From: Eledone cirrhosa
Taxonomy: Eukaryota
Reading direction: 5' to 3'
Length of the DNA stretch: 64,000 nt
Assembly: GCA_964016885.1 (NCBI GenBank)
Contig: OZ024750.1
Location: forward strand, 14,384,001-14,448,000
The notes beneath the pieces were generated by a model, which saw nothing but the letters and a program-made list of their open reading frames with translations, made no database searches and had not been told where the DNA came from. The position numbers and the translations under genes were made by a program. The first letter of the stretch is position 1, and every line of letters begins with the position of its first letter. Shown here piece after piece: positions 12,757-59,708 of this stretch.

Positions 12757-12825
12757 GCCACTGAAAGTTTAGTTTCAAAGCCATAGGCCCAAGCAGTAAC
12801 TTTATAACTATTAAAATATACTTAC

Positions 12826-12962
12826 TCATGTGCGTCATTAGAATGAGACGTCTTTGGGAAGATTTCATTTGTCTCTCCATTACTAGTGGCTTCTCCTTTA
12901 TTTTCTGTGGCTAGCAGCATGTGATTGGAATTGGTACTCAATGGTACAACAGATGGATTTGT
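12826..12962 (-). CDS. RAB3IP: Rabin8 N-terminal region exon
   Basis: Strong polypyrimidine+tag acceptor and gtaagt donor; open frame TNPSVVPLSTNSNHMLLATENKGE...NDAH; ends in phase 2, matching the next exon. An internal ATG could be the start. Confidence 0.75.
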
Positions 12963-14100: not shown

Positions 14101-14933
14101 ATGGTCATAAATAGAAAGGGAAATTAGAGAGCTATTACCAATGGGATGAGCCTGCAAATATAGATAGTAGCGGCACATATGAATCATGGAAGCAATGCAA
14201 TGAATTTAATATGTCCATATTATTAAGTCGTAAGAGTGAGAAAGAAGTAAGGTGGGTGAGACAAGAGTAATGTGTTATGCATAACAAAATAAATTACTGA
14301 AGTTAAGTTTCTACAAAAGGTTTTATAGATATTACTCTAGTATGTAAACATCCACAACAAATGTTTCTGTTTTACTTACACATATACACCCACATGAAAA
14401 TGTTTAAACACACATGCATACAAATATTTATACACAGATATATATATAAACATCTTCATAGACATATATCCATACACATTTACCCATACAAATATTTACA
14501 CACACACTTAGGTATCAGTAAAACATCACTTGAGTTGTCCTTACATAAATTGTTTTGTTGAACAAACTGATTAGCGACAGCTTTGATGAGGGCAGCCAGA
14601 TAGACTTCCAGAGTTGTTGATGAAACCCTTAGAAACTTAGCATGAGTAATAAATGGCATTTTTCTTAATGTTCTACCACTCAGACCATAACTCTTCAGAA
14701 TAGTAAATAACCAGTCCTTGGCTGAGGGGGGACTCAGTGAAGGCAACCCATCATGGTGCTATGCCTATCCCTGGCTGAGGGATCTCTCATTCCAGTAAGA
14801 CAATATCTTTCATACTAATGTAACTGGTACACCATTGGTTACAACAAGTATTCCAGTTGCTACAATTAATGGAACAGCCTGCTTGTGAAATTAACCTGCA
14901 AGTGGCTGAGCATTTCACAGACACGCATACCCA

Positions 14934-20235: not shown

Positions 20236-20445
20236 AGAAGTGAACTAACAGCCAAAGTGTATGATAAAGTTATATCTGCATAAATACAGAGTGTATAACC
20301 GAGACAGCACCAACATGTATAAATATATACACATATCTAATATATAGGCATGTAAACATACCAGAAAATACGAATTTCCCTGTAAATTGAAAACATATTA
20401 AACACCTTTAATCCATTTTCATATTTAATTGAACCCTCATAAGGT

Positions 20446-22599
20446 GTGTATATTGTATATAATAATAACTTACTAGAGGCGACGGATGAGGTTTGTGGCT
20501 GGAGTAAGACCTCAAGCAGGAGGAGAGTGACTTGGTGGTGGAACAATAAGGTAGATGAAGCAGTCAAGGCCAAGAGACAGGCATGGAAAGAATGGAAGAA
20601 CGGGGGGAGCAGGGTACATTACATAGAGACCAAGAGGGAAGCTAGGCGACAAGTATACTTAGCTAGGAGGGAAGCAGAGGATAGAAAATTCAAGCATGTT
20701 TTACAACGTGAGGACCAGAAACAGGAGGTATTCAAGATTGCGAGGCAGTGTGTCAGAGATAGTTGTGATGTCATTGGAGAGAAGTGTATCCGGAATGATA
20801 AAGGTGAGCTTGCCCTCACAAGTGCTGAGAAGAAAGATGCATGGAAGAGTCATTATGATAGATTACTAAATGAGGAGAATGCATGGGAAGAAGAGACCCT
20901 ACCCCACGTAGACCCTATAGAGGGACCAGCAGTACAACTCAGCGGCAGCGTAGTAAGTAAGGCAATCAGAGATATGAAGATAGGGAAGGCAACCGGTCCA
21001 TCGGGTATAGCTGCCGAGATGCTGAAGGCATCTGGGTCTGTAGGTCACACTATAACCACACGTATCGTTAACCAGGTAATACTAGAGGGGGCCATACCAA
21101 AAGATTGGTGCAGTAGCATCATTGTCAACTGCTACAAAGGTAAAGGCGATGCACTAGATAGAGGAAACTATAGAGGTATAAAGTTGATGGACCAGGTCAT
21201 GAAAGTAACAGAAAGAGTTATAGCACAGCTGATTAGGGACCGGGTGAATATAGACGAGATGCAATTTGGGTTTGTACCAGGGAAAGGCACCACTGATGCC
21301 CTCTTCCTTGTGAGGCAATTACAGGAAAAGTACCTAGCTAAAAGTAAGCCACTCTACTTGGCATTTGTCGACCTTGAGAAAGCCTTTGACAGAGTTCCAC
21401 GTGCAGTAATCTGGTGGGCTCTTAGAAAACTAGGAGTAGATGAATGGCTTGTGAAAGCGGTACAAGCCATGTATAGGGGAGCAGTCAGCAAAGTTAGGAT
21501 TGGCAATGAGTATAGCGAGGAATTTAGCGTACAGGTTGGGGTCCACCAGGGCTCTGTTCTTAGCCCTCTCCTGTTCATCATAGTCCTGCAGGCAATAACG
21601 GAGGAGTTTAAGACCGGATGCCCATGGGAACTCCTGTATGCTGATGACCTCGCACTCATAGCTGAATCTATGGTAGAACTAGAGAATAAATTCCAAACCT
21701 GGAAGCAGGGACTAGAGAGAAAGGGCCTCAAAGTCAACATGACAAAGACTAAGGTCCTTGTAAGTAGACGAGAAAACAGAACCCAGATCCCCTCAGGGAA
21801 ATGGCCTTGCTCAGTATGTAGGAAAGGTGTAGGTAGAAACTCCATTCTCTGCCCCAAATGCAAACAATGGGTACACAAGAGATGTAGCGGGATCTCAGGA
21901 AGCTTAATTAAGAATGTAGGATTCACATGCAGCAGCTGTGCTGAAACAGCAAGCAAACAGCCACAGGAAACAAGTACCACCAATCTCTGGGAGGGCCCTG
22001 TAGAAACAGTAGACAGCTTCTGCTACCTAGGTGACCGAATTAGCAACGGAGGTGGGTGCTCAGAAAGTACAATAACTAGGGTAAGAACGGGATGGAAGAA
22101 GTTTAGGGAACTACTACCACTGCTAGCTGCAAAAGGCTTCTCCCTCAGAATGAAAGGCAGACTGTATGATGCGTGTATCCGAACAGCGATGTTGCATGGT
22201 AGTGAGACCTGGGCGCTGAAGGTGGAAGACTTACGTAGATTAGAGAGAAACGAAGCCTGCATGCTCCGATGGATGTGTAACAGTAATATACGTGAACGAC
22301 AAAGCATAAAGGAATTGAGAGAGAGACTGAGCATAAGAGGAATCAAATGCTGCGTGCAGGAGAGGCGGTTACGCTGGTATGGACATGTGATGCGTATGAA
22401 GGATGACAGCTGCATAAAAAGGTGCAGAGCACTAGAAGTTGATGGAAACCGCGGAGTGGGGAGACCCAAGATGACTTGGGATGAGGTGATAAAAGCCGAC
22501 CTTACCCAACTACACCTCTCAAAGTCAATGACACACGACCGTGACTTCTGGCGTCACGCAGTAATACAGGGTACCCGACCTCCCATGGGTACATGCTGA
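20446..22599 (+). CDS. RTE reverse transcriptase ORF (partial) with internal PHD-type finger
   Basis: 717-aa ORF in the track; homology starts near NLLEATDEVCGWS; the annotated start codon is not authentic. Confidence 0.9.
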   Translation: MYIVYNNNLLEATDEVCGWSKTSSRRRVTWWWNNKVDEAVKAKRQAWKEWKNGGSRVHYIETKREARRQVYLARREAEDRKFKHVLQREDQKQEVFKIARQCVRDSCDVIGEKCIRNDKGELALTSAEKKDAWKSHYDRLLNEENAWEEETLPHVDPIEGPAVQLSGSVVSKAIRDMKIGKATGPSGIAAEMLKASGSVGHTITTRIVNQVILEGAIPKDWCSSIIVNCYKGKGDALDRGNYRGIKLMDQVMKVTERVIAQLIRDRVNIDEMQFGFVPGKGTTDALFLVRQLQEKYLAKSKPLYLAFVDLEKAFDRVPRAVIWWALRKLGVDEWLVKAVQAMYRGAVSKVRIGNEYSEEFSVQVGVHQGSVLSPLLFIIVLQAITEEFKTGCPWELLYADDLALIAESMVELENKFQTWKQGLERKGLKVNMTKTKVLVSRRENRTQIPSGKWPCSVCRKGVGRNSILCPKCKQWVHKRCSGISGSLIKNVGFTCSSCAETASKQPQETSTTNLWEGPVETVDSFCYLGDRISNGGGCSESTITRVRTGWKKFRELLPLLAAKGFSLRMKGRLYDACIRTAMLHGSETWALKVEDLRRLERNEACMLRWMCNSNIRERQSIKELRERLSIRGIKCCVQERRLRWYGHVMRMKDDSCIKRCRALEVDGNRGVGRPKMTWDEVIKADLTQLHLSKSMTHDRDFWRHAVIQGTRPPMGTC

Positions 22600-22907: not shown

Positions 22908-23175
22908 ATGAAAATATTGTGTACAGTGCTCCGGTGCACTACAACTCATCAAAAGTATGTATAGTACATAGGGTAATGTACAAACGTCAGGAAAATGAAC
23001 AGTGCATGAGTCATGATATACACGTGTATGTGTATGGAAGGGGGACATCAGGTGTAGTTTTAGCGAATTTCGGGAAGTATGAGGGTTTTAAAGGATGCAG
23101 TGTCTCGGCAGCTAACAACTGACGCAGGCAATTTGTTCCATGTTTCAGCAACTCTGAGCGTGAAAAATGTTTCAT
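22908..23175 (-). mobile_element. CR1-like LINE 3' end
   Basis: Reverse-complement match to about 49110-49380. Confidence 0.85.
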
Positions 23176-23274
23176 GGGTGTGTGTGTGTATATATATATT
23201 TTGATTATGAGAATATTTTTTATTTATTAATATTTTGAATAATATATATATAAAAATATTCTCATAATCAAAAT

Positions 23275-23343
23275 ATATATATTATTATACATATTTCAAA
23301 GGTACAATGGTGTTTAAGTACGTTTTCATCAGACAAAATATAT
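23275..23343 (-). ncRNA. Type I hammerhead ribozyme motif (slightly decayed)
   Basis: Minus strand reads atatattttgt CTGATGA aaacgtac-12 nt-gtaccttt GAAA TATGTA TA ataatatatat; all core residues are present and the stems pair. Confidence 0.65.
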
Positions 23344-23422
23344 GATTTGATATGTGACATACCGCTACGGTTTTGATTATTCAATTCCAGTTGAGTAATC
23401 AATGAACCATATTAATCTTTGG

Positions 23423-23463
<41 letters not shown>

Positions 23464-25749
23464 GTAGATATTTAATTTTTTTTTTTTTTCAAAATGATTC
23501 AAAAATATTTTGTATAACATATACCTTACTTAAAAAAAAAGTGAAGGTTCATGACAGGAAGGACATCTGGCTGCAAGTTTCTGCCTAACCTATGCCTGTT
23601 TGGGAAAGGACAGCTGTAAAACAGGTAGCAGTGGTGATGATGATGATGATGTTTGCTCTTACCATTTAATCACGATACCTCCTGCTATTGTGACCAATCT
23701 CAAAACAATGCAACTCTCAGTTTTATTCCTCAACTTTCCTTCACTTTTATTTTCATTCTCCTCTCTCTCATTTGACAACCTCTTGCTTCTACAGCATCTT
23801 GTTTACGTAACAGCAAACAAAATCACACTGCTTATTATACTTTCATTATATTTTATACAAATTTTTAAAATGTCTTTGTATAATATCCCTGACCCATCCA
23901 CATTTTTCTATAACTGTCTTGTACATACCAACGTTTTCTGTAACCAGCATAATTTTCAATGATTCATGTAATTGTATGTATGAAAAATAATTTGTTATTG
24001 CCCCTGTGGCTAAATAAAAAAGAAATAATATTATTGGATGATGACTTGAACACAAGTGCTTCCTTCATTTCTAACTATTGACTAGTCTTTGATTTGGTTT
24101 TAACAAAGATTTTCTAGAATTTGGATGGCATTTTTACATGTATGCGTCATAAGGCAAGATTTTTGATTAATTTTTGTAAAAAAAAAACAAAAACAAAAAC
24201 AAAAAACCCCAGCAATTTTATGAACTTTTTGAATGATAATTTGGTTCAATTAGATTCATAATAGTATTGAGTCAGCAAAACAACACCAACTACAAAGGGA
24301 AGAACGTGAACATTTCAACAAACACAAAAAGTGCTTTGCAGTTAAATTTTTCAGACTTGGAGGGTTTTTATGTTATTCAGAAGAGACAGTTTATTAGGTA
24401 TTTCTGAAAACCAACTCCATGATAGCAATCTCATCCTTTTGATACCAAACCACTTAAACTGGCCTTACATTTATGTTACAAAACTGCTTTTTTTAAAGTG
24501 TTGATACTTATATATTAAAACCTTTTCTGAAGTAATGCTTCAAACAATTAGCTTAATAATGTTTGAAGTGAGTTATTTTACTAAATTCCTTCAAATTCTT
24601 ATTTTCACCATCAATTGAAACACACAAGAGATCTGGCAAATGTCTGAACTAATAAGTATGTATGCATGGTCCTGTAACTCTTGAAGTTGTCGGAGTGCCA
24701 TATGTTAATGCAGCATTTCTTAAGGTATTTTAAAACCTAGTGGAGCCCATCTCTCCAAGTTTGAATACTGCAGAGTTCTTCAAGAGAAGGATATAGAGTT
24801 AGAGAAAGATATATAGAGGAAGAATCAACCTCAGTATTTGACTGGTATTTATTTATCAACCTCAATTGGATGAAAGGCAAAGTTAACTTCAGCGAGATTT
24901 AAATTCAAAGAGCAGAGAGTCGGAATGAATACAGCAAAGCATTCTATTCAACATTCGAACAACTCTGCCAATTCGCCGCCTGGACTAATATGTATAGAAA
25001 TAGGTAAAATATATGGCATTGTGTTTGGTTTAAGAGATTGGAGATGAAGCATAGAGATAAAACAGAGACAGAACATCCACTCTTAAGTTTGTGCCCCAGT
25101 TCATAGGGCAGTAGGACTGACCCCTGGCTCATCATTGGCTGCGTAAAGCAATAAGACAGACAGTGCAAGGCAAAAAACTCAGCTGTTTTGTGATAGTAAA
25201 AGTTATTTGAGAGCTTTCTGTCCTGAGGAGAAAGAGAAGATGAATGAGCCGGTTCCAGAGAATACTGCTATAACACTAGTTGCAGCTCCAAGGATACCCA
25301 GTAAATCTACGTCATCCTCAGTCCCAGAAGTAAAAGATACTGGAACAATGTATGGATGCACAAGAAGTTGGGAGATTAAAGCACCAGGAAAATGTTAGTC
25401 ATAAGGAGCAAAAAAAAAAAAAAAAGGTATAAAGCACTTTTGTTCAGAAGACATGAGTCTTTTCAAGAGGAACCCACAAAAGAAATACTTGCAGAAATGT
25501 GATGTGTTATGACTTGACTATTAATAGATTCTCGCTTATGAGTGGGTGGGTAACAAAAAGTGTTTTTCATATTGTTAATTATTGTTTAATATTTTTATAT
25601 TTGTTTCATTAAATTTTTACTCAGTCTATTGTATAACTTCCGTCCACTACCCTTCTTTTTATTTCAACTTTGTTCCTCCATCCCTGTATGTATTGTAACC
25701 TTACCTCGATAATGTTTATTGTTATATATGTGAGTCCTTGTAGTTAAAT

Positions 25750-26699: not shown

Positions 26700-29600
26700 A
26701 GTTTTTATTTGAGTAGACATTGTCAAACCAACATACCTACATACTGGTGTTGTGTGTGAACTCTTAACAGACATAGCCAACCAACATACCTACATACTGT
26801 GTTAGTGTGGTGTGGGAACTTAGTAGACATAGCCAACCCACATACCTACATACTGTGTTAGTGTGGGAACTTAGTAGACATAGCCAACCAACATACTGTG
26901 TTAGTGTGGTGTGGGAACTTAGTAGACATAGCCAACCCACATACCTACATACTGTGTTAGTGTGGGAACTTAGTAGACATAGCCAACCAACATACCTACA
27001 TACTGTGTTAGTGTGGGAACTTAGTAGACATAGCCAACCAACATACCTACATACTGTGTTAGTGTGGTGTGGAACTTAGTAGACATAGCCAACCCACATA
27101 CCTACATACTGTGTTAGTGTGGGAACTTAGTAGACATAGCCAACCAACATACCTACATACTGTGTTAGTGTGGGAACTTAGTAGACATAGCCAACCAACA
27201 TACCTACATACTGTGTTAGTGTGGTGTGGTGTGGAACTTAGTAGACATAGCCAACCCACATACCTACATACTGTGTTAGTGTGGGAACTTAGTAGACATA
27301 GCCAACCAACATACCTACATACTGTGTTAGTGTGGGAACTTAGTAGACATAGCCAACCTACATACCTACATACTGTGTTAGTGTGGTGTGGTGTGGAACT
27401 TAGTAGACATAGCCAACCAACATACCTACATACTGTGTTAGTGTGGTGTGGAACTTAGTAGACATAGCCAACCAACATACCTACATACTGTGTTAGTGTG
27501 GTGTGGAACTTAGTAGACATAGCCAACCAACATACCTACATACTGTGTTAGTGTGGTGTGGAACTTAGTAGACATAGCCAACCCACATACCTACATACTG
27601 TGTTAGTGTGGGAACTTAGTAGACATAGCCAACCAACATACCTACATACTGTGTTAGTGTGGTGTGGAACTTAGTAGACATAGCCAACCAACATACCTAC
27701 ATACTGTGTTAGTGTGGTGTGGAACTTGGTAGACATAGCCAACCCACATACCTACATACTGTGTTAGTGTGGGAACTTAGTAGACATAGCCAACCAACAT
27801 ACCTACATACTGTGTTAGTGTGGGAACTTAGTAGACATAGCCAACCAACATACCTACATACTGTGTTAGTGTGGGAACTTAGTAGACATAGCCAACCCAC
27901 ATACCTACATACTGTGTTAGTGTGGTGTGGTGTGGAACTTAGTAGACATAGCCAACCCACATACCTACATACTGTGTTAGTGTGGGAACTTAGTAGACAT
28001 AGCCAACCAACATACCTACATACTGTGTTAGTGTGGGAACTTAGTAGACATAGCCAACCTACATACCTACATACTGTGTTAGTGTGGTGTGGTGTGGAAC
28101 TTAGTAGACATAGCCAACCAACATACCTACATACTGTGTTAGTGTGGTGTGGAACTTAGTAGACATAGCCAACCAACATACCTACATACTGTGTTAGTGT
28201 GGTGTGGAACTTAGTAGACATAGCCAACCCACATACCTACATACTGTGTTAGTGTGGTGTGGAACTTAGTAGACATAGCCAACCAACATACCTACATACT
28301 GTGTTAGTGTGGTGTGGAACTTAGTAGACATAGCCAACCAACATACCTACATACTGTGTTAGTGTGGTGTGGAACTTGGTAGACATAGCCAACCCACATA
28401 CCTACATACTGTGTTAGTGTGGGAACTTAGTAGACATAGCCAACCAACATACCTACATACTGTGTTAGTGTGGGAACTTAGTAGACATAGCCAACCAACA
28501 TACCTACATACTGTGTTAGTGTGGTGTGGAACTTAGTAGACATAGCCAACCCACATACCTACATACTGTGTTAGTGTGGGAACTTAGTAGACATAGCCAA
28601 CCTACATACCTACATACTGTGTTAGTGTGGGAACTTAGTAGACATAGCCAACCAACATACCTACATACTGTGTTAGTGTGGGAACTTAGTAGACATAGCC
28701 AACCCACATACCTACATACTGTGTTAGTGAGGTGTGGAACTTAGTAGACATAGCCAACCTACATACCTACATACTGTGTTAGTGTGGGAACTTAGTAGAC
28801 ATAGCCAACCCACATACCTACATACTGTGTTAGTGTGGTGTGGAACTTAGTAGACATAGCCAACCAACATACCTACATACTGTGTTAGTGTGGTGTGGAA
28901 CTTAGTAGACATAGCCAACCCACATACCTACATACTGTGTTAGTGTGGTGTGGAACTTAGTAGACATAGCCAACCCACATACCTACATACTGTGTTAGTG
29001 TGGTGTGGAACTTAGTAGACATAGCCAACCAACATACCTACATACTGTGTTAGTGTGGTGTGGAACTTAGTAGACATAGCCAACCAACATACCTACATAC
29101 TGTGTTAGTGTGGTGTGGAACTTAGTAGACATAGCCAACCAACATACCTACATACTGTGTTAGTGTGGTGTGGGACTTAGTAGACATAGCCAACCCACAT
29201 ACCTACATACTGTGTTAGTGTGGGAACTTAGTAGACATAGCCAACCTACATACCTACATACTGTGTTAGTGTGGTGTGGAACTTAGTAGACATAGCCAAC
29301 CAACATACCTACATACTGTGTTAGTGTGGTGTGGAACTTAGTAGACATAGCCAACCAACATACCTACATACTGTGTTAGTGTGGTGTGGAACTTAGTAGA
29401 CATAGCCAACCAACATACCTACATACTGTGTTAGTGAGGTGTGGGACTTAGTAGACATAGCCAACCCACATACCTACATACTGTGTTAGTGTGGGAACTT
29501 AGTAGACATAGCCAACCTACATACCTACATACTGTGTTAGTGTGGTGTGGAACTTAGTAGACATAGCCAACCCACATACCTACATACTGTGTTAGTGTGG

Positions 29601-32600
29601 TGTGGAACTTAGTAGACATAGCCAACCCACATACCTACATACTGTGTTAGTGTGGTGTGGGACTTAGTAGACATAGCCAACCCACATACCTACATACTGT
29701 GTTAGTGTGGGAACTTAGTAGACATAGCCAACCTACATACCTACATACTGTGTTAGTGTGGTGTGGAACTTAGTAGACATAGCCAACCAACATACCTACA
29801 TACTGTGTTAGTGTGGTGTGGAACTTAGTAGACATAGCCAACCAACATACCTACATACTGTGTTAGTGAGGTGTGGGACTTAGTAGACATAGCCAACCCA
29901 CATACCTACATACTGTGTTAGTGTGGGAACTTAGTAGACATAGCCAACCTACATACCTACATACTGTGTTAGTGTGGTGTGGAACTTAGTAGACATAGCC
30001 AACCCACATACCTACATACTGTGTTAGTGTGGTGTGGGAACTTAGTAGACATAGCCAACCTACATACCTACATACTGTGTTAGTGTGGGAACTTAGTAGA
30101 CATAGCCAACCAACATACCTACATACTGTGTTAGTGTGGGAACTTAGTAGACATAGCCAACCAACATACCTACATACTGTGTTAGTGTGGTGTGGAACTT
30201 AGTAGACATAGCCAACCCACATACCTACATACTGTGTTAGTGTGGGGAACTTAGTAGACATAGCCAACCTACATACCTACATACTGTGTTAGTGTGGGAA
30301 CTTAGTAGACATAGCCAACCCACATACCTACATACTGTGTTAGTGTGGTGTGGAACTTAGTAGACATAGCCAACCAACATACCTACATACTGTGTTAGTG
30401 TGGTGTGGAACTTAGTAGACATAGCCAACCCACATACCTACATACTGTGTTAGTGTGGTGTGGAACTTAGTAGACATAGCCAACCCACATACCTACATAC
30501 TGTGTTAGTGTGGTGTGGAACTTAGTAGACATAGCCAACCAACATACCTACATACTGTGTTAGTGTGGTGTGGAACTTAGTAGACATAGCCAACCAACAT
30601 ACCTACATACTGTGTTAGTGTGGTGTGGAACTTAGTAGACATAGCCAACCAACATACCTACATACTGTGTTAGTGTGGTGTGGGACTTAGTAGACATAGC
30701 CAACCCACATACCTACATACTGTGTTAGTGTGGGAACTTAGTAGACATAGCCAACCTACATACCTACATACTGTGTTAGTGTGGTGTGGAACTTAGTAGA
30801 CATAGCCAACCAACATACCTACATACTGTGTTAGTGTGGTGTGGAACTTAGTAGACATAGCCAACCAACATACCTACATACTGTGTTAGTGTGGTGTGGA
30901 ACTTAGTAGACATAGCCAACCAACATACCTACATACTGTGTTAGTGAGGTGTGGGACTTAGTAGACATAGCCAACCCACATACCTACATACTGTGTTAGT
31001 GGTGGGAACTTAGTAGACATAGCCAACCTACATACCTACATACTGTGTTAGTGTGGTGTGGAACTTAGTAGACATAGCCAACCCACATACCTACATACTG
31101 TGTTAGTGTGGTGTGGAACTTAGTAGACATAGCCAACCCACATACCTACATACTGTGTTAGTGTGGTGTGGAACTTAGTAGACATAGCCAACCCACATAC
31201 CTACATACTGTGTTAGTGTGGTGTGGGACTTAGTAGACATAGCCAACCCACATACCTACATACTGTGTTAGTGTGGGAACTTAGTAGACATAGCCAACCT
31301 ACATACCTACATACTGTGTTAGTGTGGTGTGGAACTTAGTAGACATAGCCAACCCACATACCTACATACTGTGTTAGTGTGGTGTGGAACTTAGTAGACA
31401 TAGCCAACCAACATACCTACATACTGTGTTAGTGAGGTGTGGGACTTAGTAGACATAGCCAACCAACATACCTACATACTGTGTTAGTGTGGTGTGGAAC
31501 TTAGTAGACATAGCCAACCAACATACCTACATACTGTGTTAGTGAGGTGTGGGACTTAGTAGACATAGCCAACCCACATACCTACATACTGTGTTAGTGT
31601 GGTGTGGAACTTAGTAGACATAGCCAACCCACATACCTACATACTGTGTTAGTGTGGTGTGGGAACTTAGTAGACATAGCCAACCTACATACCTACATAC
31701 TGTGTTAGTGTGGGAACTTAGTAGACATAGCCAACCTACATACCTACATACTGTGTTAGTGTGGTGTGGAACTTAGTAGACATAGCCAACCCACATACCT
31801 ACATACTGTGTTAGTGTGGTGTGGGAACTTAGTAGACATAGCCAACCTACATACCTACATACTGTGTTAGTGTGGGAACTTAGTAGACATAGCCAACCAA
31901 CATACCTACATACTGTGTTAGTGTGGTGTGGGAACTTAGTAGACATAGCCAACCTACATACCTACATACTGTGTTAGTGTGGGAACTTAGTAGACATAGC
32001 CAACCAACATACCTACATACTGTGTTAGTGTGGTGTGGAACTTAGTAGACATAGCCAACCCACATACCTACATACTGTGTTAGTGTGGGAACTTAGTAGA
32101 CATAGCCAACCCACATACCTACATACTGTGTTAGTGTGGGAACTTAGTAGACATAGCCAACCCACATACCTACATACTGTGTTAGTGTGGTGTGGAACTT
32201 AGTAGACATAGCCAACCAACATACCTACATACTGTGTTAGTGTGGTGTGGAACTTAGTAGACATAGCCAACCAACATACCTACATACTGTGTTAGTGTGG
32301 TGTGGAACTTAGTAGACATAGCCAACCAACATACCTACATACTGTGTTAGTGTGGTGTGGAACTTAGTAGACATAGCCAACCACATACCTACATACTGTG
32401 TTAGTGTGGTGTGGAACTTAGTAGACATAGCCAACCAACATACCTACATACTGTGTTAGTGTGGTGTGGAACTTAGTAGACATAGCCAACCCACATACCT
32501 ACATACTGTGTTAGTGTGGTGTGGAACTTAGTAGACATAGCCAACCAACATACCTACATACTGTGTTAGTGTGGTGTGGAACTTAGTAGACATAGCCAAC

Positions 32601-33770
32601 CAACATACCTACATACTGTGTTAGTGTGGTGTGGAACTTAGTAGACATAGCCAACCCACATACCTACATACTGTGTTAGTGTGGTGTGGAACTTAGTAGA
32701 CATAGCCAACCCACATACCTACATACTGTGTTAGTGTGGTGTGGAACTTAGTAGACATAGCCACCCAACCTACATACTGTGTTAGTGTGGTGTGGAACTT
32801 AGTAGACATAGCCAACCCACATACCTACATACTGTGTTAGTGTGGGTGGAACTTAGTAGACATAGCCAACCCACATACCTACATACTGTGTTAGTGTGTG
32901 GGAACTTAGTAGACATAGCCAACCCACATACCTACATACTGTGTTAGTGTGGTGTGGAACTTAGTAGACATAGCCAACCAACATACCTACATACTGTGTT
33001 AGTGTGGGAACTTAGTAGACATAGCCAACCCACATACCTACATACTGTGTTAGTGTGGGAACTTAGTAGACATAGCCAACCCACATACCTACATACTGTG
33101 TTAGTGTGGTGTGGAACTTAGTAGACATAGCCAACCCACATACCTACATACTGTGTTAGTGTGGGAACTTAGTAGACATAGCCAACCCACATACCTACAT
33201 ACTGTGTTAGTGTGGTGGAACTTAGTAGACATAGCCAACCCACATACCTACATACTGTGTTAGTGTGTGTGAACTTAGTAGACATAGCCAACCCACATAC
33301 CTACATACTGTGTTAGTGTGGTGTGGAACTTAGTAGACATAGCCAACCCACATACCTACATATTGTGTTAGTGTGGTGTGGAACTTAGTAGACATAGCCA
33401 ACCCACATACCTACATACTGTGTTAGTGTGGTGTGGAACTTAGTAGACATAGCCAACCCACATACCTACATACTGTGTTAGTGTGGTGTGGAACTTAGTA
33501 GACATAGCCAACCCACATACCTACATATTGTGTTAGTGTGGTGTGGAACTTAGTAGACATAGCCAACCCACATACCTACATACTGTGTTAGTGTGGTGTG
33601 GAACTTAGTAGACATAGCCAACCCACATACCTACATACTGTGTTAGTGTGGTGTGGAACTTAGTAGACATAGCCAACCCACATACCTACATACTGTGTTA
33701 GTGTGGTGTGGAACTTAGTAGACATAGCCAACCCACATACCTACACACAGGTGTTGGTGTGTGAACTCTT
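26700..33770. repeat. ~7-kb satellite of 51/55-bp units (roughly 130 copies)
   Basis: ggaacttagtagacatagccaacc(a/c/t)acatacctacatactgtgttagtgtg(gtgt) repeated head to tail; degenerate copies continue to about 34100. Confidence 0.98.
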
Positions 33771-35493
33771 GATTACAGTCTACCCACATACCTACACACC
33801 CGTTGGTGTGTGGTCTGTAGTGTGTAGTCTTAATTACACTACCTACCCACATATACACATGTTGGCGTGTAAACTCTTGATTACATATCTCTACAGAAAT
33901 TGATGTGTAGTAGCTATCGATTACTCTACCTACACACATATCTCTCTCTACAGACAGATGTGTGTGAACTCTTCATTACACTACTTACCTACATACCAAT
34001 ACACAGGTGTGTGGTGAGTGTACTCTCTTGATTACACTCCCTGGCCACAAAACAGTGTCTCTCTCTACACACACATACAGGGATGTGTTGGTGTGTATGT
34101 GTATTGTTATATTGTACTCCAATGGTTAGAATATTGAATAGACGCACATAAAACATACGATTAAAAGAAAAATGGCCTCGGAAGGAATTCTTTATCGTTG
34201 TTTAGAAATCAGGTAAGTTATCGATGAAAAGAAAACAAGATTTTAATGGAATATAGATTTAAATAAAACTATATTTTCGTAAGAATAATATAACTACCAT
34301 AACCATTATGTCGTTCGTTCGGCATGTATTACTTCAGGGATTCTAATACTAAGTCTGACTATGATTCCATAAACAGCAGTGCCAGAATTGTCCCCTAATA
34401 CAAATATATGTAAATTTGGGGAGCTGTACTTGGGAGTTACTCAATATTTACACAACGTTCCACCCCTCCAAAAATCACCTCTGACTCAACACGTTTGGCC
34501 TGGTCCACCAGAAAGACATTTAACCCACTGACCTGACCTTTTTTGAAGAGTTTGTGTGTGAAAACCCCACGCACGTTAACGGAAATGTGTACGTGTAAAG
34601 AATGAAGGAGAAAATAAAGAAATACAATGAACCTTAAAACAAATAACGTCTAGTTATGAGTAATTTAAACAATTATTGCCTTGACAATAGTTAAAAAGTG
34701 GTCAACTTCGACAATTATTCTTTCTCTATCGAAAACTTTCAGCTTCTCTACTATTCACTCTTTACATTGATGTTTAAACATTAAACATGTCAAATATATA
34801 GGCATCTGTATATAGCCACACATACACATTACAAATAATATATATCATTTAATGCTCGGTGTTTACGTCTATCTTTCTCTTTCTTTTACTTTAAAATATT
34901 TATATCTTCCACCTATAATTACATAAACACTTTGAGCTTTGGACAAAATTAGTGGCATTTATATACTATCCTATATATATATAATATAATATATATATAT
35001 ATATATATATAAGTAGAAGGGATATTTAATTTGTTGGAAATTCAAATATAAATGTTTATAACTGATTCAGAGCACTCGATAAGTTCTGGAGTAAATATTC
35101 AATGATATTAAATAAATGGAAACTATATTTATAAAACCATATTTATTCTATTATATATATTTCAAGGGTACCAAAAACTTTGGTACGCTTTCCTTGGCTA
35201 TGTCAAAATTTATAAAACACTTTGTATTTTATCTGATGGGAGAAGGCGGGGGGAAAGGGGGGGGGGGGGAAGCGTACAAAGGAATAAATATGGTTTTATA
35301 AATATAATTTCCATTTATTTAATATTGTGCATGTATATATATATATATATATCGTTTGTGTTTATGTGTCAGTGTATGTGTATATATATATATATATATA
35401 CATATATATATCGTTTGTGTTTATGTGTCAGTGTATGTGTATATATATAAGGTGAAACAATTGTTCTCGGTATGGTGAACTATGTGTAACTAC

Positions 35494-36229: not shown

Positions 36230-37600
36230 GACGAATCGACATAAGAAAGCTTTATCAAACAACCGCCGAGTCACGCCCCTAGAGTTACTAAAAATAGAAC
36301 AGAATAGACGAATATTTTTCTATTGTAATAAAATATTATTTCTCCATTCGACTTTAGGAACAATTGAAGAGAAATGGGTGGAGAAAAATGGCGACCAGGG
36401 ATCATTTTAATAACGACTTCGTCCCCCAAAATATTAATAATATCCATGCTATGAGTATCCCGTCTTCAACACCACAGCATGAGATATATAAATACTATCT
36501 ATATATATATATATGGACTTGGCTGTTATCCAAAGATGAAAGGGAAAGTTTCGTTGACAGGAAAATAAAATAAAATAAGTTTTTACAAACCTTAAACATA
36601 GAATTAGAAAACTTGACAGTGATATATATAAATTACATATATATATATATAAATATATATAGCAAGAGGATAAAAAAATATGATAGAAATATTTGCATGT
36701 GTTTACCTGTGAAATTGTAGACATGACTGACTAGATCATAGAGAGACGTTGCGATTGATGAGAGGAAATACTTTGATAAGGTATGAAGAATCCGTCGGTA
36801 ATAAAATGATTCCAAATAAACGGAGTGTATCAAAATTTGCAGCAAGGATCACAAACAATATTCCAAAGTAAAAAAAACAAGGGACATCGAAAATAAAAGG
36901 TGCATACCCTGGTCACGGGATAATGAAGTGGAAGCTGCTGTAAAACAGTTCAATATTGGAAATGGGGGAGGAAGGAGGTCTGAGGTTTCCAGAGAAAATG
37001 GTAAACCGAAGAATCGTGGGATTACATCCCGAATGATTTTTTTTTTTTTTTTTTTTTTTTTTAGTTAAAGAAATATGAGTCGTCTGTTGATATCACAAGT
37101 GTTGTTTCTCAAATGGAAGATTTTCAGTATTAGTAAAATCCATGTGAGACATGAATATTATTAATATTATTAAAAAGAAATAATAATAATAATAATAATT
37201 ATTATTATTATTACTACAACAACACCGTAGTTTTTGGACACCTTTAAAAATAAATGTGCAGCTTTCAGGAAAAAGCTGATATATATTTATATAGATAGAT
37301 GTGTGTTAAAGAATGGCAAGTGGGCGTATTGTATGAAAGGAGTATAGTGAAATGGTCAAGTTAAGTTGGTTTTAGACTGTGTAAGAAAGAGATAAAGAGT
37401 CGCTAGTATCCAAATAAAATAATATTGCCAGGTAATTATTTTGTTCCGAGCTTCCGGCGTCTTGTCAGCTTCCGAGAAAACCGTCTCTTCCCAATAAGAA
37501 GAAACTACAAAACCGATTGTCTGTTGTTTATCTTCAATATCTTTAGACAAGGGTCCCATATGGAGTTTGTTGTTTTTGTAAGTTTTTGGTATTTAAATAA
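36230..37600. promoter_or_regulatory. Candidate (bidirectional) promoter region
   Basis: Unique sequence with more CpG than its flanks, an ETS-like cttccgg at about 37451, a YY1-like aaaatggcg at about 36385, and divergent ATG+donor micro-exons at 36724 (-) and 37560 (+). Confidence 0.4.
36707..36724 (-). CDS. RAB3IP: Candidate first coding micro-exon of Rabin8 (MSTISQ)
   Basis: ATG TCT ACA ATT TCA CAG|gtaaac, phase 0, compatible with exon 12826-12962; lies in a unique, relatively CpG-containing region. Inference only. Confidence 0.45.
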
Positions 37601-39040: not shown

Positions 39041-39567
39041 AGCAGTGTTATCAACAGCAGTAGTAAACAACATCGTTAGTATGTCACCAATAACCGCAGT
39101 ATCAACATTGTTGCCAGTGTAGTAGAAACACCAACAGTTAACTACAGCGATGGCAGCCAGCTCTATCACTGCCCCATGGTTGTGATTTCAGCAGTGGTAA
39201 TCAACGACAGTAGTAAATAATAAACAACAAGGCACATAAAGCAATTAGTTAGTATGTCACCAACAACCGTACTATCATCATCACTACCAATGGAGTAACG
39301 AGAGCCATGGCAGTGAAAGTAATACTACGTAGGTTGAGCGACAGATGGCGAGACACTGGAATACCAAACATTACAATCATTTCGTCCATCCAGATTCCAA
39401 TTTTTTCTCTTTCGTCATTCAGCAGGTTGATAAAATTAGTCCTTTTCCAACATACCACCTGAAACCGTCCTTGATTTATGATACAAACAAATATCGGCTT
39501 ACTAATGAAAACTTAGTTCTTCTTAGTTATTTTATTAAATCCCTTATTTTCACAGACGGTGTATTTC

Positions 39568-39670
<103 letters not shown>

Positions 39671-39726
39671 TGAGACAGTAAACAAAAAACCAAAAAACAA
39701 CGTGAAGCGAAGAGACAGTACAAAAT

Positions 39727-39767
<41 letters not shown>

Positions 39768-39768
<1 letters not shown>

Positions 39769-40418
39769 TAGCCGAATTACCCGCGCCCTGCTGTGTTTCA
39801 CACATTTTTTTTGTAAGAAAATGATTGATTTTAAATCAGTGATATAATTTATGGAGAAAAACTCTGCATTTCAATATTACTCAATGTAAAATGTAATGCA
39901 TAAAAAATTGGAAAACATTATTTTTTGTAATATAACAAATCAAAATTATATTATTAAATCTTATTCTTATTTTGTTTCTTGTAAATAATTTTTTTTAAAA
40001 TATCAATTCAAAACTTTTGTGAATAGGCATCATATCTTGTCATTTACCTATGGTTTAAATTTCATATAAATCGAAGGGAAAAAATTTTCAGCGGGGATTT
40101 GTGCCCCTGGGGAACCCTAATAGGGGTTTTAACCCCCTATTAGGGTGTCTTATTATTATTGAAATTTGCTGAAAGTTTGTGAATAGGAATCATATCTTGT
40201 CATTTACCTATGGTTTAAATTTCATATAAATCGAAGGGAAAATATTTTCAGCTGGATTTGTGCCTCCTGGAGAACCCTTTGATTAAAATGAAATATACTT
40301 ATCCAAGTACCCTGGGCAATGAAGTTTCATAATATATATGGTTGTGAGGGGTGGGTCTATCTCCAAAACCATAGGAGGAGTTCGTGAACAAACAAAAAAA
40401 CAAACAGACAGGAATACA

Positions 40419-40450
<32 letters not shown>
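39768..40450 (-). mobile_element. Probable non-autonomous Helitron
   Basis: Minus-strand 3' end has a GC-rich subterminal stretch then CTAG|T; the 5' end has (TA)n followed by ctgtctgtttgttt; internal ~70-bp duplication at about 40015 and 40175. Confidence 0.55.
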
Positions 40451-40600
40451 ATGAAAAATTGAACAGGGACAGAACAGAGAGGCAGTACGACAAATGTTTA
40501 TTAAATTCACGGTCAGGAGAGTGGGGGGTAGGTGGATATGTGTGTTGATTTAAAACTTCACTATTCACAAGTGTTTTTTAAGCTTCATATCATGTGTCCC

Positions 40601-40671
40601 TATTTTATCTGATGAGAACGCAGATATCAACCCATGATGATATTTGTTTTTGAAATGCGCATAATAAAATA
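40601..40671 (+). ncRNA. Minimal type I hammerhead ribozyme motif
   Basis: Stem I TATTTTAT/ATAAAATA (8 bp perfect), CTGATGA at 40609-15, 14-bp stem II, GAAA at 40652-55, palindromic TGCGCA stem III, AUA cleavage triplet. Confidence 0.8.
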
Positions 40672-40699
40672 CTTGGAACTCTTTTAACCATCTTTTGAT

Positions 40700-40768
<69 letters not shown>

Positions 40769-40772
<4 letters not shown>

Positions 40773-43761
40773 TCATCATCATCATCATCATCAGGTTTAG
40801 CGTCCGTGTTCCACGCTTGCATGGGTTTGGACGGGGGTTTTCCCACTTGAGGCAAGAGTGGTTGTCTTGCTCGCATAGGACTGTCTGGCGGGTTTTCTAC
40901 AGTTGGATGCCCTTCCTAACACCAACCACATTTACAGTGTGGGGCTGGGAGGTTTTTACCGTGTTGCCTACACGGCCACATTACAGCGTGGACTGTCTGG
41001 CGGGTTTTCTACAGCTGGATGCCCTTCCTAACACCAACCACATTTACAGTGTGGGGCTGGGAGGTTTTTACCGTGTTGCCTACACGGCCACATTTACAGC
41101 GTGGACTGTGTGTTTTTTGTCGTGACACCTACACGATCTCATTTGTTTCGGCCTGGATGTTGTGGGACCAACATAACTTTACATTGAAAGGGGCGGTGTG
41201 GGTGGGGTGGAGGGTGGTGGGACGGGGGGGTGTTTTGATAGAGATGCCTACTGACTGTAGTAGGTTTTTACTTTGTATTTAGGTAAGGCGGGTCTTCTCT
41301 ATTACTGAGTACCGCCAAAGGTCTCGGTCCAGTGACATTGTCTTGGAGAGGTGTAAGCGTGTGAGGTCGGAATTTATCAGCTCGTCCCATGTTTTTCTGG
41401 GTCTGCCTACTCCGTGGCTACCGTCTATCTTTATTGCCCTGCACTTTGTTATACAGCTGTCGTCTTTCATGCGCATCACGTGACCGTACCAACGTAGCCT
41501 TCTCTCGAGTAAACAACATCTGATCCCTCTTATTTCTAATTTTTTCCTTAGTTCGTTTATGCTTTGCCGTTCACGTATATTACTATTGCACATCCAGCGG
41601 AGCATGCAAGCTTCGTTCCTCTCTAGTCTGCGTATATCCTCTGCACACAATGCCCAGGTCTCACTGCCATGCAGCATTGCTGTTCGTATGCAGGCATCGT
41701 ATAACCTGCCTTTCATTTTTAGGGAGAACCCTCTAGCGGCTAATAGTGGTATAAGCTCTCTGAACTTTTTCCATCCAGTTCTGACTCTAGCTACTGTACT
41801 TTCAGAGCACCCTCCCCCACTGCTGATTTTGTCACCCAGATAACGGAAGCTGTCCACTATTTCTATAGAACCCTCTGCGCAGTTGAAGGAGCTAGTATTT
41901 TGTGGGCACTTGCTGCTACTTATTGCACCAGAGCACCGGCCACATGTAAAATCTATGTTCTTAGTTAGCTTACCTGTGATCCCACTACATCTTTTATGCA
42001 CCCATACTTTGCATTTGGGACATAAAATGGAGTTTCTACCTACGCCTTTCCTACACACTGAGCATGGCCATTTCCCCGATGGGACCGCCGCCTTATTTTC
42101 TTTCCTACAAACTAGAACTTTAGTCTTAGCCAGGTTAATTTTAAGGCCTTTTGATTCTAGGCCGTGCTTCCACGTTTGGAATTTCTTCTCTAGTTCGGTC
42201 ATTGATTCAGCTATGAGCGTTAGATCATCTGCGTATAGGAGTTCCCATGGGCAGCCGGTCTTGAACTCCTCTGTTATAGCCTGAAGGGCAATAATAAATA
42301 GTAGGGGGCTAAGAACAGAGCCCTGATGGACACCAACTTTTACGCTAAACTCTTCACTATATTCGTTGTTAATTCTAACCTTACTGACTGTTTCTTTATA
42401 CATGGCTTGTATAGCTCTCACAAGCCATTCGTCAACACCTAGTTTTCTAAGAGACCACCAGATAATGGAACGGGGGACTCTGTCGAAGGCTTTCTCCAAG
42501 TCGACGAAAGCTAAGTATAGGGGTTTACTTTTAGCTAGGTACTTCTCCTGTAGTTGTCGTACAATGAAAAGAGCGTCTGTGGTACTTTTGCCTGACACAA
42601 ACCCGAACTGCATTTCATCTAGATCAATTCTCTCTCTGATTAGTTGCGCTATTACTTTTTCCGTGACCTTCATGACCTGGTCGATTAATTTAATGCCTCT
42701 ATAGTTACTCCTATCTAGGGCATCTCCTTTTCCCTTATAGCAGTTAACGATGATGCTGCTACGCCATTCCTTCGGAACAACCCCATTCTGTACGACTTGG
42801 TTAACTATCCGGGTGACCATGGTGTGTCCCACCGAACCAGATGCCTTCAGCATCTCAGCAACTATTTCCGAAGGCCCAGCCGCCTTACCCGTCTTCATAT
42901 CTTTGATTGCCTTACTTATTATACTACCTTCAACTAACACTGCTGGTCCCTCTATTGGATCGATCTGGGGGAGACTGTCTTTCTCCCATTTGTTCTCCTC
43001 ATTTAGAAGCCTTTCGTAGTGACACTTCCAAGCTACCTTCTTATCAGCGTCGGTGATGGCAAGTATGCCATCATCGTTAAGTACACACTTCTCCCCGACA
43101 ATATCACGGTTTTCCTTGACACATTGCCTGGCAATCCTGAACACCTCACGTTTTTGGTCCTCACGTTGTAGAACATGCTTGAACTTTCTTTCCTCTGCTT
43201 CCCTTCTTGCGAAGTACACTTGTCTCCTAGCTTCCCTCCTGGCCACTTGATAGTCTTCTCTACTTCCCCCATCCCGCCATACTTTCCAAGCCTGCTTTTT
43301 GGCCTTAATTGACTCCTCCACCTTACTGTTCCACCACCATGTTACTCTCCTCCTACCTACAGGCCTGCTCCAGCCACAGACTTCGTCTGCCGCCGTCAGC
43401 AGGTTTGCTCTCAGGAATTCCCACTGTTCCTCTATATTATACGACTCTAATTGCTCTTCCTTACTGTCGAAAGCGTCAAGTAATATGCTTTGGAATTTAT
43501 TTCTGGCTATGGGGTCCTTTAGCTTCCATATTTTTCTCCTGAGGATAGTCCTCTTCCGCTGTCTAGTACGTCTCGTCCTGACTATGAGGTCGCTAATTAT
43601 CAGTCTATGTTGGGAGGTGAATTCTTCATGGGGGTGGGATTTAGTGTTAACAACAGACACTCTGTCACGTCTTCTGGTAAGGATATAATCTACCTGGCTT
43701 GTGTGTTCCCCCGATCTATAGGTGATCAAGTGATTGTCTCGTTTTTTGAAGTTAGTGTTAC

Positions 43762-43765
<4 letters not shown>
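40769..43765 (-). mobile_element. RTE-clade LINE, 5'-truncated within the APE endonuclease
   Basis: APE C-terminus (CNTNFKK..ITYRSG...SQVDYIL...SQHRLI), full RT with YADD, 3'UTR and (GAT)n tail; (TA)n on both sides. Confidence 0.95.
41279..43765 (-). CDS. RTE ORF2 (partial APE + RT + PHD-type finger)
   Basis: Part of the 846-aa ORF in the track; the N-terminal IYIY run is translated microsatellite. Confidence 0.9.
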
Positions 43766-43809
<44 letters not shown>

Positions 43810-43811
<2 letters not shown>

Positions 43812-44135
43812 AGGCACATGGCTTAGTGGTTAGAGCATTGGCCTTGCAATCGAAAGGTTGTGAGTTCAATTCTCAGACCGGGTGATGTGTTGTTTCCTTG
43901 AGCAAGAGACTTTATTTCGCATTGCTCCAGTTTACTCAGCTGTAGAAATGAGATGATAGGGACTGGGGTCCCTATCATTCCACTGCAAAGTGGTCGTGGA
44001 GGTGCCATGGCAAAAAAGCACCCAGCACTCACTGTAAATGAGGTTGGTGTTAGGAAGGGCATCCAGCTGTAGAAATCAAGCCAGAATCAGTTACCGTCCC
44101 ACCCTTGCACGCAGGGAAAAGCGGACATAAAATGA
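43810..44135 (+). mobile_element. tRNA-derived SINE with RTE-derived 3' tail
   Basis: A box TGGCTTAGTGG, B box GAGTTCAATTC, core ccttgagcaagagactttatttc...ctcagctg; tail near-identical to the RTE 3'UTR at about 22640-22790. Confidence 0.9.
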
Positions 44136-49034: not shown

Positions 49035-49397
49035 TTGATTTCCATGTCTCTAACACACGTGGACATGCCTACAAAGTCAGAAAGCAGTGCAGCTCCCATG
49101 ACTTTCGGAAACATTTTTTCACACTCAGAGTTGCTGAAGCATGGAACAAACTACCTGCATCAGTTGTTAGCTGTTAAGACACTGCATCCTTTAAAACCTC
49201 CATGCTTCCTGAGATTCACCAACACTACACCTGATGTCCCCCTCCATACACACGCACACATGTATTTCATGACTCGTACACTGTTCATTTTCCTGACATT
49301 TGTACATTATTCTATGTACTATACATGTACCTTTGATGAGTTGTAGTGCACCTGAGCACTGTACACAATAATTTCATTATTATTATCATTATTATTA
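49035..49397 (+). mobile_element. CR1-like LINE 3' end
   Basis: Translates FFTLRVAEAWNKLPASVV, the CR1 ORF2 C-terminal motif; terminal hairpin tagtgc-acctga-gcactg; (ATT)n tail. Confidence 0.85.
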
Positions 49398-58078: not shown

Positions 58079-58290
58079 CTAAGAACTCATATCTTTTTTC
58101 AGTTTTGCTAAGGCTGCCAAATGACTGTCTCTCCATTTACGGCGTTTTTCCAAATCTGACATAGGGACTTTGGCGGAAAGTTCCTTTTGAATACGCTCAA
58201 GTGTAGGCCCTTCCATTTTTTCTGGTGGAGAAAAGGTTTTCTGTATATTGCAAATTGTATTGGCATAGCGATCACAATAATCCATCATTC
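58079..58290 (-). CDS. CRYL1: Lambda-crystallin homolog, terminal exon
   Basis: (G)MMDYCDRYANTI...LEKRRKWRDSHLAALAKLKKDMSS*, matching the CRYL1 C-terminal motif RRxWRDxxLxxLAKLK; cag acceptor. Confidence 0.93.
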
Positions 58291-58649
58291 CTGTAAAATA
58301 GAATCAAAAGAATAAAGTGAATTTTAAAAAAAAAAAGTTGATTCAGAATGCTAATCAAATAAAAAGCAAAGAATACTAGCATTTGTATGTTGGTTTGCAG
58401 CTATGAGTGATTTTCATAAACATTTCCTTATCTATTGCTGTTGCTGCTGCTGCTGTTGTTTAGCTCAAGCCAGTCAGCTCTGGTGAGCAGATCTATAATG
58501 ATTGGCATCTCAACTTCAACCCACTTGCTTTTTCTTTGACGACAGTATATTTAGGACTACATTATCAAATGTAAAATAGAGAGATGACTCATGAAGTCTT
58601 TGCATAATCTATAAAATCCTATTTATTAGTTCAAACTCCAGCTTAACCT

Positions 58650-59532
58650 AAGCCTAAAAGTTAGGATGCTTGATGTATGATTGTAGTTTGTTAGTTTAAT
58701 TCCTAGACAGACTGTTGCATGGTGTTCTTGAGCAAAACACTTTATTTCACATTGCTCCAGTACACTCAGCTAAGAGTGAGTACCAGCAGTATCTGGCGCC
58801 CTGTCCAGGGAGAGTCTTGTACTCTCAGTAGCTTAACATTAAGAAAACCAGGGATAAGTACCAACCTGATGAACCTCTGGGCTTGAGACAGACTTTAACC
58901 ATGCAATAGACTGGCGTCTTGTTCTGTGGGGAATCTTATACTCTCAGTCGCTTAACACCAAGTATCAGCCTGATGAACCTCTGGGCTTGAGACAGACTTT
59001 AACCATGCAATAGACTGGCGTCTTGTTCTGTGGGGAATCTTATACTCTCAGTCGCTTAACACCAAGTATCAGCCTGGTGAACCTCTGGGCTTGAACAGAC
59101 TTTAACCATGCGATAGACTGGCGTCTTGTTCTGTGGGGAATCTTATACTCTCAGTCGCTTAACACCAAGTATCAGCCTGATGAACCTCTTGGCCTGAACA
59201 GACTTTAACCATGCGATAGACTGGCGTCTTGTTCTGTGGGGAATCTTATACTCTCAGTCGCTTAACACCAAGTATCAGCCTGATGAACCTCTGGGCTTGA
59301 ACATACTTTAACCATGTGATAGACTGGCGTCTTGTTCTGTGGGGAATCTTATACTCTCAGTCGCTTAACACCAAGCATCAGCCTGGTGAACCTCTGGGCT
59401 TGAACAGACTTTAACCATGTGATAGACTGGCGTCTTGTTCTGTGGGGAATCTTATACTCTCAGTCGCTTAACACCAAGAAAACCAGATATAAGGACCAGC
59501 CTGATGAGCCTCGGCTTAGAACAGACTTTAAC
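58650..59532 (+). mobile_element. SINE whose 3' part is amplified into a 103-104 bp tandem array (6 units)
   Basis: Core cttgagcaaaacactttatttcac, then units starting at 58865, 58969, 59073, 59176, 59279 and 59382. Confidence 0.85.
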
Positions 59533-59708
59533 TTAACTAAAACATTAATTACATTTAATTATAAACTAAAGAATATTAAATATAATTAACATTGTGGATT
59601 TTGAAGAACAACACAATATCAGAAGATGAAACAGAAGACAAAATGCAGAAAGTAGAAGAAACCAGAGAAATTGATATACTTCCAAAACCTGAAAATATAT
59701 GTTCTTAC

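Follow-up and report, generated by a model that had tools for sequence, protein, structure and literature searches.

The window analysed here is the whole 64,000-nt stretch of Eledone cirrhosa DNA, in which exon translations are 85 to 91% identical to Octopus sinensis proteins. The coding exons of Rabin8 (RAB3IP-like) are found on the minus strand, from 12962 down to 2373. The peptide MSTISQ at 36724-36707 is the best match in the window to the start of Argonauta protein P0122 that has a GT next to it, and its reading frame continues into exon 2 at 12962. An earlier reading of the letters alone (the sequence-only reading) had tentatively placed the Rabin8 start near 36.7 kb and a hammerhead motif at 23.3 kb in the sense orientation. 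The MSTISQ piece with its GT, compared with Argonauta MSAISQ, bears this out. Since exon 1 is placed at 36724-36707 by homology, the motif (H1) lies in sense within intron 1. The Rabin8 segments and the two LINEs of the region are:

36707..36724, minus strand, first coding exon piece of Rabin8, MSTISQ followed by a GT donor; five of six residues equal to Argonauta P0122 (MSAISQ)
12825..12962, minus strand, Rabin8 exon 2, 61% identical to residues 11-51 of P0122
12963..36706, minus strand, Rabin8 intron 1 (23,744 nt), placed by protein homology; holds H1 and a broken inverted pair, H3
20443-22599, plus strand, LINE, 718 aa frame with RVT_1 and PHD (Pfam)
41279-43822, minus strand, LINE, 847 aa frame with RVT_1 and PHD (Pfam)

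The last exon of TRIP13/Pch2 is present as a lone copy at 14534-14695 (minus strand) inside Rabin8 intron 1. It is 85 to 87% identical to octopod proteins, lacks a clear acceptor and the expected stop, and is accompanied by no other TRIP13 exon in the window; Rabin8 and TRIP13 are recorded on contigs of different length in O. sinensis and Argonauta. The copy is probably a transposed gene fragment. TRIP13 was considered as the host gene of the intron and rejected, only this degenerate last exon lying within the window. The intron also holds a tandem array of about 7 kb with units of 51 to 55 bp (26750-33700). The two LINEs, which we take to be RTE-like, are 75 to 77% alike, and each stops no more than 370-600 nt short of a hammerhead segment. 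A 3' fragment of another LINE-type repeat (23050-23175, minus strand) adjoins the H1 tail and has an 88% copy at 49115-49243. At 39560-40770 different elements are nested in (TA)n tracts; one insert is presumably Helitron-like, and a 65-nt piece (39667-39730) resembles the start of the segment that carries a second motif, H2. Exons at 58082-61753 (minus strand) presumably belong to a lambda-crystallin (CRYL1) homologue. At 58785-59506 (plus strand) there are six tandem 103-bp units, several with CTGATGA and none with a GAAA partner; this array looks like a tandemised SINE end and not a hammerhead.

H1 is made up of the following parts:

23275..23343, minus strand, the whole type I hammerhead motif (sequence and pairing check)
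23333..23343, minus strand, 5' strand of stem I; G at 23334 is A in 24 to 38% of family depth (G.U to A-U)
23326..23332, minus strand, core C3-A9, CUGAUGA (read from the sequence)
23298..23325, minus strand, stem II of 8 bp with a 12-nt loop; A10.1-U11.1, C.C at pair 4, no bulged base after A9
23294..23297, minus strand, core G12-A15.1, GAAA; no variant among those listed
23286..23293, minus strand, stem III region UAUGUA (near-palindromic), U16.1 and A17; predicted cut 23286/23285
23275..23285, minus strand, 3' strand of stem I; U at 23281 private to H1

The minus-strand coordinates, core and stems proposed by the sequence-only reading all check. The strands of stem II (23325-23318 and 23305-23298) are paired at seven of eight positions, the exception being the C.C of pair 4. 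Stem I (23333-23343 and 23285-23275) has 10 of 11 pairs, with one G.U and a U.U mismatch at pair 5. TATGTA occupies 23293-23288, U16.1 is at 23287 and A17 at 23286. The core shows the type I letters CUGANGA, GAAA and UH, with C3-G8 and A15.1-U16.1. The palindromic 15.2-16.2 region is dimer-capable: it forms eight of eight pairs with two G.U in H1 and is perfect in a UAUAUA variant and in H2. The distal four to five pairs of stem I are an (AU)n alternation, two of which (23279 and 23343) are broken in about 28 to 35% of RAD reads. Core, stems and palindromic stem III support the assignment of H1 as a type I, dimer-type hammerhead motif, and its presence at 23275..23343 is confirmed.

Two descriptors, both composed after the motifs were already known, were used in pattern scans. 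The core-plus-RYRY pattern has two matches in the window (H1 and 40609) and none in 100 dinucleotide shuffles; a stem-aware descriptor found the same two matches and one match in 200 locally shuffled windows. Both stems together were seen in none of 40 viral and none of 40 metagenome loci matching similar patterns (pairing strings read by eye), and these loci therefore serve only as a null; a stricter metagenome pattern had no matches. Rfam reported no hammerhead among 60 matches in the window (E up to 5) or two local matches (E up to 10). The 69-nt H1 piece has a folding z of -0.35, no better than its own shuffles.

H1 is one of many copies. Four of six DNA runs, from at most three samples and two studies, were mapped to 23181-23550 at a likeness of at least 80%. 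The flanks 23181-23214 and 23415-23550 were skipped as repeats, and the mapping therefore provides no single-copy control and no copy number. Contigs matching the H1 region numbered 1692 of 17.1 million and 1435 of 16.3 million, and matching RAD reads 1692 of 12.5 million and 1810 of 12.8 million; most of either kind are less than 95% alike. The family signal spans 23207-23391 and is almost nil by 23402-23414. In run X1 the depth falls from 41,434 to 18 across 23376-23414. Summed depth over the motif, which is not equal to copy number, is 79,000 to 321,000, against 5 to 26 per listed contig. None of the contigs listed spans the H1 locus. It was concluded that H1 is a member of a very abundant dispersed repeat and not a gene-specific element; we infer thousands of copies or more.

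The variants among these copies follow the hammerhead architecture. Well-supported variable sites, counted from the listed rows after exclusion of three with few read starts, fall on 0 of 13 core positions and 16 of 56 positions outside (Fisher p 0.022). With all listed rows the counts are 1/13 and 18/56 (p 0.069), and the sole core row, at 23331, is weak (one of four runs, three starts). Stems I and II close the junction, and covariation takes the form of matched but unphased partner frequencies, which bears out the covariation that had been proposed. In stem II of the RAD reads, G10.1 is found in 31/28% and its partner C11.1 in 33/25%, G of pair 10 in 48/43% and its partner C in 43/41%, and pair 9 closes in 60 to 64%; all these frequencies are unphased, and they are skewed both by the 80% likeness filter and by the set of loci that was cut for RAD sequencing. 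A subgroup of the family carries G10.1-C11.1 and two further stem II pairs. Loose-end rows show neighbouring stem II changes together on one molecule, and stem I pair 2 alternates between G.U and A-U across copies. Pair-breaking variants are present at 23279, 23300, 23304 and 23343.

The stem II mismatch at position 4 had been proposed as a family trait. Neither 23322 nor 23301 appears among the listed variant rows; the C.C of pair 4 therefore looks fixed, and C.C is also found at 35.2 kb, in agreement with that proposal. Two other proposals were not supported. An ancestral TACGTA has no listed row of at least 5% at 23291, either for itself or for another decay product; the palindromic variant that is seen is TATATA, at 20 to 54% across the family. 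The string catatca, taken as a mark shared with the 40601 motif, has its first C (23354) replaced in 87 to 88% of contig depth. Position 23281 is A in 94 to 99.9% of family depth, and the U of H1 is a private stem I mismatch. Read ends pile up at 23386 (434 and 519 molecules) at an AATT; we read these as a RAD restriction site and not as a biological end.

The borders of the H1 copy, the tracts next to it and the two other loci of the window are:

23252..23391, minus strand, repeat copy carrying H1: about 50 nt upstream, the hammerhead and part of the 3' tail; homology stops at about 23391
23190..23250, plus strand, inverted copy of the family 3' tail, tail-to-tail with H1 and joined at a short (TA)n; 93 nt, 88% self-complementary, loose ends before 23252
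23373..23402, no strand assigned, small fold-back that straddles the 5' break of the H1 copy; opposite-strand joints at 23388-23391 in single contigs
23424..23459, no strand assigned, (TA)18 tract upstream of the H1 copy
35105..35325, no strand assigned, H3, two broken family members inverted head-to-head, their arms 44 bp long (43/44 identical); matches loose-end consensus rows
40451..40701, plus strand, H2, a 250-nt segment between (TA)n tracts with the motif at 40601-40671 and core C3 at 40609 (pattern scan and alignment)

Read in the hammerhead sense, the family runs on for about 55 nt beyond the cut site, up to its end at (TA)n. The inverted tail at 23190-23250 forms a long hairpin with 23252-23282 and carries about 25 family letters beyond those of the main H1 copy. 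Sequence beyond 23391 in the listed loose ends has a median of 27 to 45 nt and is heterogeneous (agreement 0.56 to 0.65). H3 sits 1.4 kb into Rabin8 intron 1 and escaped the core-based scans. Its minus copy retains stem II, GAAA (35163), UAUAUA and UA (35152) and lacks CUGAUGA; its plus copy retains CUGAUG (35233) and is interrupted by a G-rich tract. C.C is kept at pair 4 in H3, with G-C at pair 3 and TATATA.

H2 lies upstream of Rabin8 and is antisense to the gene. The 20-mer that it had been said to share with H1 is real (18/20, E 0.04). The alignment of the two is limited to the hammerhead, where it beats 2000 of 2000 shuffles, although the pair was selected for that likeness; the upstream and tail sequences do not align. 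The proposal that both belong to one family thus holds only loosely, for the hammerheads and not for their surroundings, and since only the hammerhead can be aligned, H2 is probably a member of a sister family. A three-sequence alignment was too gapped for pair counts and was left out. Stem II of H2 has C.U at pair 4, G.U at 10.1-11.1 and several G.U pairs overall. The H2 homodimer is predicted to form the dimer hammerhead at -32.9 against -33.5 for the best dimer fold, that is, essentially at the minimum free energy. Despite the G.U pairs in its stem II, H2 is the better folder in these models and would be the better candidate for a cleavage assay.

The high-copy dispersed repeat whose hammerhead is seen in H1 is, we consider, likely either the 3' end (pseudo-LTR) of a Penelope-like element (PLE) or a short element that a PLE mobilises, and the copy at 23.3 kb is likely a truncated and mutated relic, predicted not to cleave. 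PLEs are described as carrying their hammerhead close to the 3' end, being cut short at the 5' end, forming partial copies in inverted orientation, having a tail extension on one side only and inserting into AT-rich or (TA)n targets (PMC8557442, PMC11167929); octopus genomes are rich in PLEs (PMC13282606, PMC8967140). The family was assigned as PLE-type because its anatomy fits these traits: the hammerhead is near the 3' end of 5'-truncated copies, in which about 55 nt of tail lead into (TA)n and homology is lost at 23391, and there are inverted partial copies with one-sided tail extension (23190-23250 and 35105-35325). The inverted pair at H1 is tail-to-tail, unlike the usual head-to-head pairs of PLEs. 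Around the three loci, 118 pieces of reading frame were compared with Pfam, and none matched an RT or GIY-YIG family. A 79-residue frame at 39333-39569 (plus strand), which ends at (TA)n and has the look of an endonuclease tail by eye, had no Pfam, Atlas or phmmer match. As a PLE-defining ORF was not found, we call the family PLE-type and infer its membership; a 5'-truncated end of 140 nt is too short to hold a PLE ORF.

PLE hammerheads are known to have a palindromic stem III, to be inactive as monomers and slow as dimers, and to occur as thousands of single motifs (PMC4209133, PMC6765202). In the source elements of the H1 family, tandem transcripts would bring two hammerheads together as a dimer joined by the palindromic stem III, possibly with the help of a protein of the element. 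The cut would follow AUA, as is known for other PLEs. Reverse transcription may then start about 55 nt downstream of the cut, where AT-rich DNA or a (TA)n tract is nicked, and its early stop would leave ends of 140 to 250 nt and inverted partial copies.

In the main rival reading, the family would instead be a non-autonomous, SINE-like or non-LTR retrozyme unit of 200 to 300 nt, amplified as tandems or circles by PLE machinery, with H1 as a dispersed monomer. There is no ORF near any of the three loci, the family sequence past 23391 is short and heterogeneous in the listed loose ends (short loose ends may merely reflect contig breaks), and mussel retrozymes with type I hammerheads do leave dispersed monomers (PMC7229834; bioRxiv 10.64898/2026.07.22.740005). 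Such a unit would be expected to differ from what is seen, however: no tandem array of the family is found at H1 or elsewhere in the window, the fixed 3' end and inverted partial copies look like PLE insertion, and helix II is long and irregular, compared with the 4-bp helix in canonical retrozyme hammerheads. We regard this origin as unlikely, and keep the PLE-type 3' end as the preferred reading.

Whether H1 acts on its host transcript was considered with folding models, which omit tertiary contacts and proteins. Pairing probability of stem I is 0.06 or less in contexts of 99 to 216 nt and 0.01 or less at seven of seven transcript lengths. The hammerhead fold is penalised by about 13.5 to 14.4 kcal/mol relative to the best fold in 216 to 600 nt, since the 3' strand of stem I pairs with the inverted tail instead; the model gave no accessible active fold in the H1 context, stem I being sequestered. 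The H1 dimer hammerhead is at -10.4 versus -13.6 for two monomers. In a 63-nt core dimer the majority letter at 23281 shifts the energy from -3.4 to -10.0, so that the private change costs 6.6 kcal/mol, and with the letters of the G-C subfamily (letter linkage assumed) it reaches -29.2. Given the private stem I mismatch and the downstream hairpin that is predicted to sequester stem I, H1 is likely inactive and probably does not cut the Rabin8 transcript. In the anole PLE, cleavage by the hammerhead was seen only when protein was added, and the hammerhead was dispensable for insertion in vitro (PMC11167929).

It seems very unlikely to us that H1 works as an active or domesticated ribozyme of the intron, cleaving Rabin8 pre-mRNA during transcription by itself or together with other family RNA. 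Such a role would fit the intact core in sense within intron 1 and the conservation of intronic hammerheads in amniotes (PMC6765202). A partial partner is also at hand 11.9 kb upstream in the same intron, where the H3 minus copy offers stem III and a cut site, and where its 3' strand can pair with the 5' strand of H1 stem I with a predicted cofold gain of 3.9 kcal/mol. But H3 is locked in a fold-back of -74 kcal/mol, the sole private change of H1 weakens stem I, and stem I is sequestered in the folding model. The intact core is the family norm and is therefore uninformative on the H1 copy itself. Minimal hammerheads of PLEs do not cleave as monomers and do so slowly as dimers (PMC4209133), and by chance about half of the intronic copies of any repeat are in sense. 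A wider version would be that intronic family copies are cleavage sites of host pre-mRNA through stem III pairing with family RNAs, the 23.3-kb core and the coreless 35.15-kb cut site of Rabin8 making a split ribozyme across 11.9 kb and the fixed C.C a tertiary or protein contact; we offer this as a speculation with very little chance of being right.

It is also highly improbable that the hammerheads belong to the neighbouring LINEs. The arrangement is seen twice, each hammerhead being antisense and 600 to 700 nt past the stop of an RT and PHD ORF (20443-22599 on the plus strand and 43822-41279 on the minus strand). However, both LINEs finish in their own (GAT)n tails (about 22908 and 40770) before the hammerhead, unrelated repeats lie between LINE and H1, the hammerhead segments are not collinear despite LINEs that are 75-77% alike, and H3 has no adjoining LINE. 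Shared insertion into simple-repeat clusters explains the neighbourhood. Chance resemblance in AT-rich, microsatellite-rich DNA would agree with the weak folding z-score, the lack of an Rfam match and the partly (AU)n stem I, and we give it next to no credence against 0/100 and 1/200 matches in shuffles, 0/80 pattern matches elsewhere with both stems, and core constraint with partner changes across copies.

Under the PLE-type reading, H1 is most likely without consequence for Rabin8 and is probably a neutral relic. Its functional interest appears weak, as one of very many dispersed copies that is predicted to misfold. The natural G-C and A-U subfamilies would provide a clean test set for dimer cleavage, and a strand bias of intact intronic copies could tell whether such motifs cut host transcripts in vivo.

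Among known systems, the amniote ultraconserved intronic hammerheads HH9 and HH10 (PMC6765202) resemble H1 in lying in sense in an intron of a protein-coding gene. They are few and conserved, whereas H1 is a member of a high-copy family, has a private destabilising change and has no Rfam match. Animal non-LTR retrozymes (PMC7229834; bioRxiv 10.64898/2026.07.22.740005) are, like the H1 family, short, non-coding, AT-rich and high in copy, with a type I hammerhead, and they are thought to use PLE machinery. Their tandem hammerhead units of 150 to 450 bp are found at none of the three loci of the window, and the helix sizes of H1 are not canonical for them. Canonical EN+ PLEs (Penelope/Poseidon, Neptune, Nematis and Hydra elements, PMC8557442; anole PAc, PMC11167929) resemble the H1 family in their 3' hammerhead, in their 5' truncation and inverted copies, in a tail present on one side and in insertion at (TA)n or AT-rich sites; they differ in that the H1 family has no RT or GIY-YIG remnant near the three loci. 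The ORF of anole PAc starts inside its hammerhead (PMC11167929), while the ATG in the H1 core opens only a 15-codon frame. Naiads use (TA)n targets as here but are without canonical hammerheads.

The closest likeness in architecture is to the metazoan PLE minimal hammerheads of PMC4209133, whose Fig. S3 includes Aedes, Drosophila willistoni, Hydra, Marsupenaeus and Saccoglossus and has no cephalopod entry. They share with H1 the type I topology and the CUGANGA/GAAA core, and with its family the dimer-needing palindromic 15.2-16.2 region, a long helix II, flanks rich in U upstream and in A and U downstream, in some cases a UA cut site, and dispersal as thousands of single copies in several sequence families. 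More than 80% of them have an extra nucleotide between A9 and 10.1, which is absent in H1; two entries of Fig. S3 also have no nucleotide after A9, so this base is typical and not required. G10.1-C11.1 is typical of them, whereas H1 and most contig depth have A-U, with G-C in about 25 to 33% of RAD reads; Marsupenaeus in Fig. S3 is a precedent for A10.1-U11.1. The apparently fixed mismatch at helix II pair 4 (C.C, and C.U in H2) sets the H1 family apart from the hammerheads in PMC4209133. Besides this mismatch, the family is distinctive in having no bulge after A9 and, frequently, an A-U closing pair; both of these have precedents. A literature search, with subscription papers and Repbase outside its scope, found no description of octopus hammerheads, and the word hammerhead is absent from the main texts of two octopus PLE papers (PMC13282606 and PMC8967140). 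The giant squid genome paper reports 235 Rfam hammerhead 1 matches (PMC6962438). The class of PLE-type hammerheads has been known since 2014, and the H1 family adds an octopod member to it.
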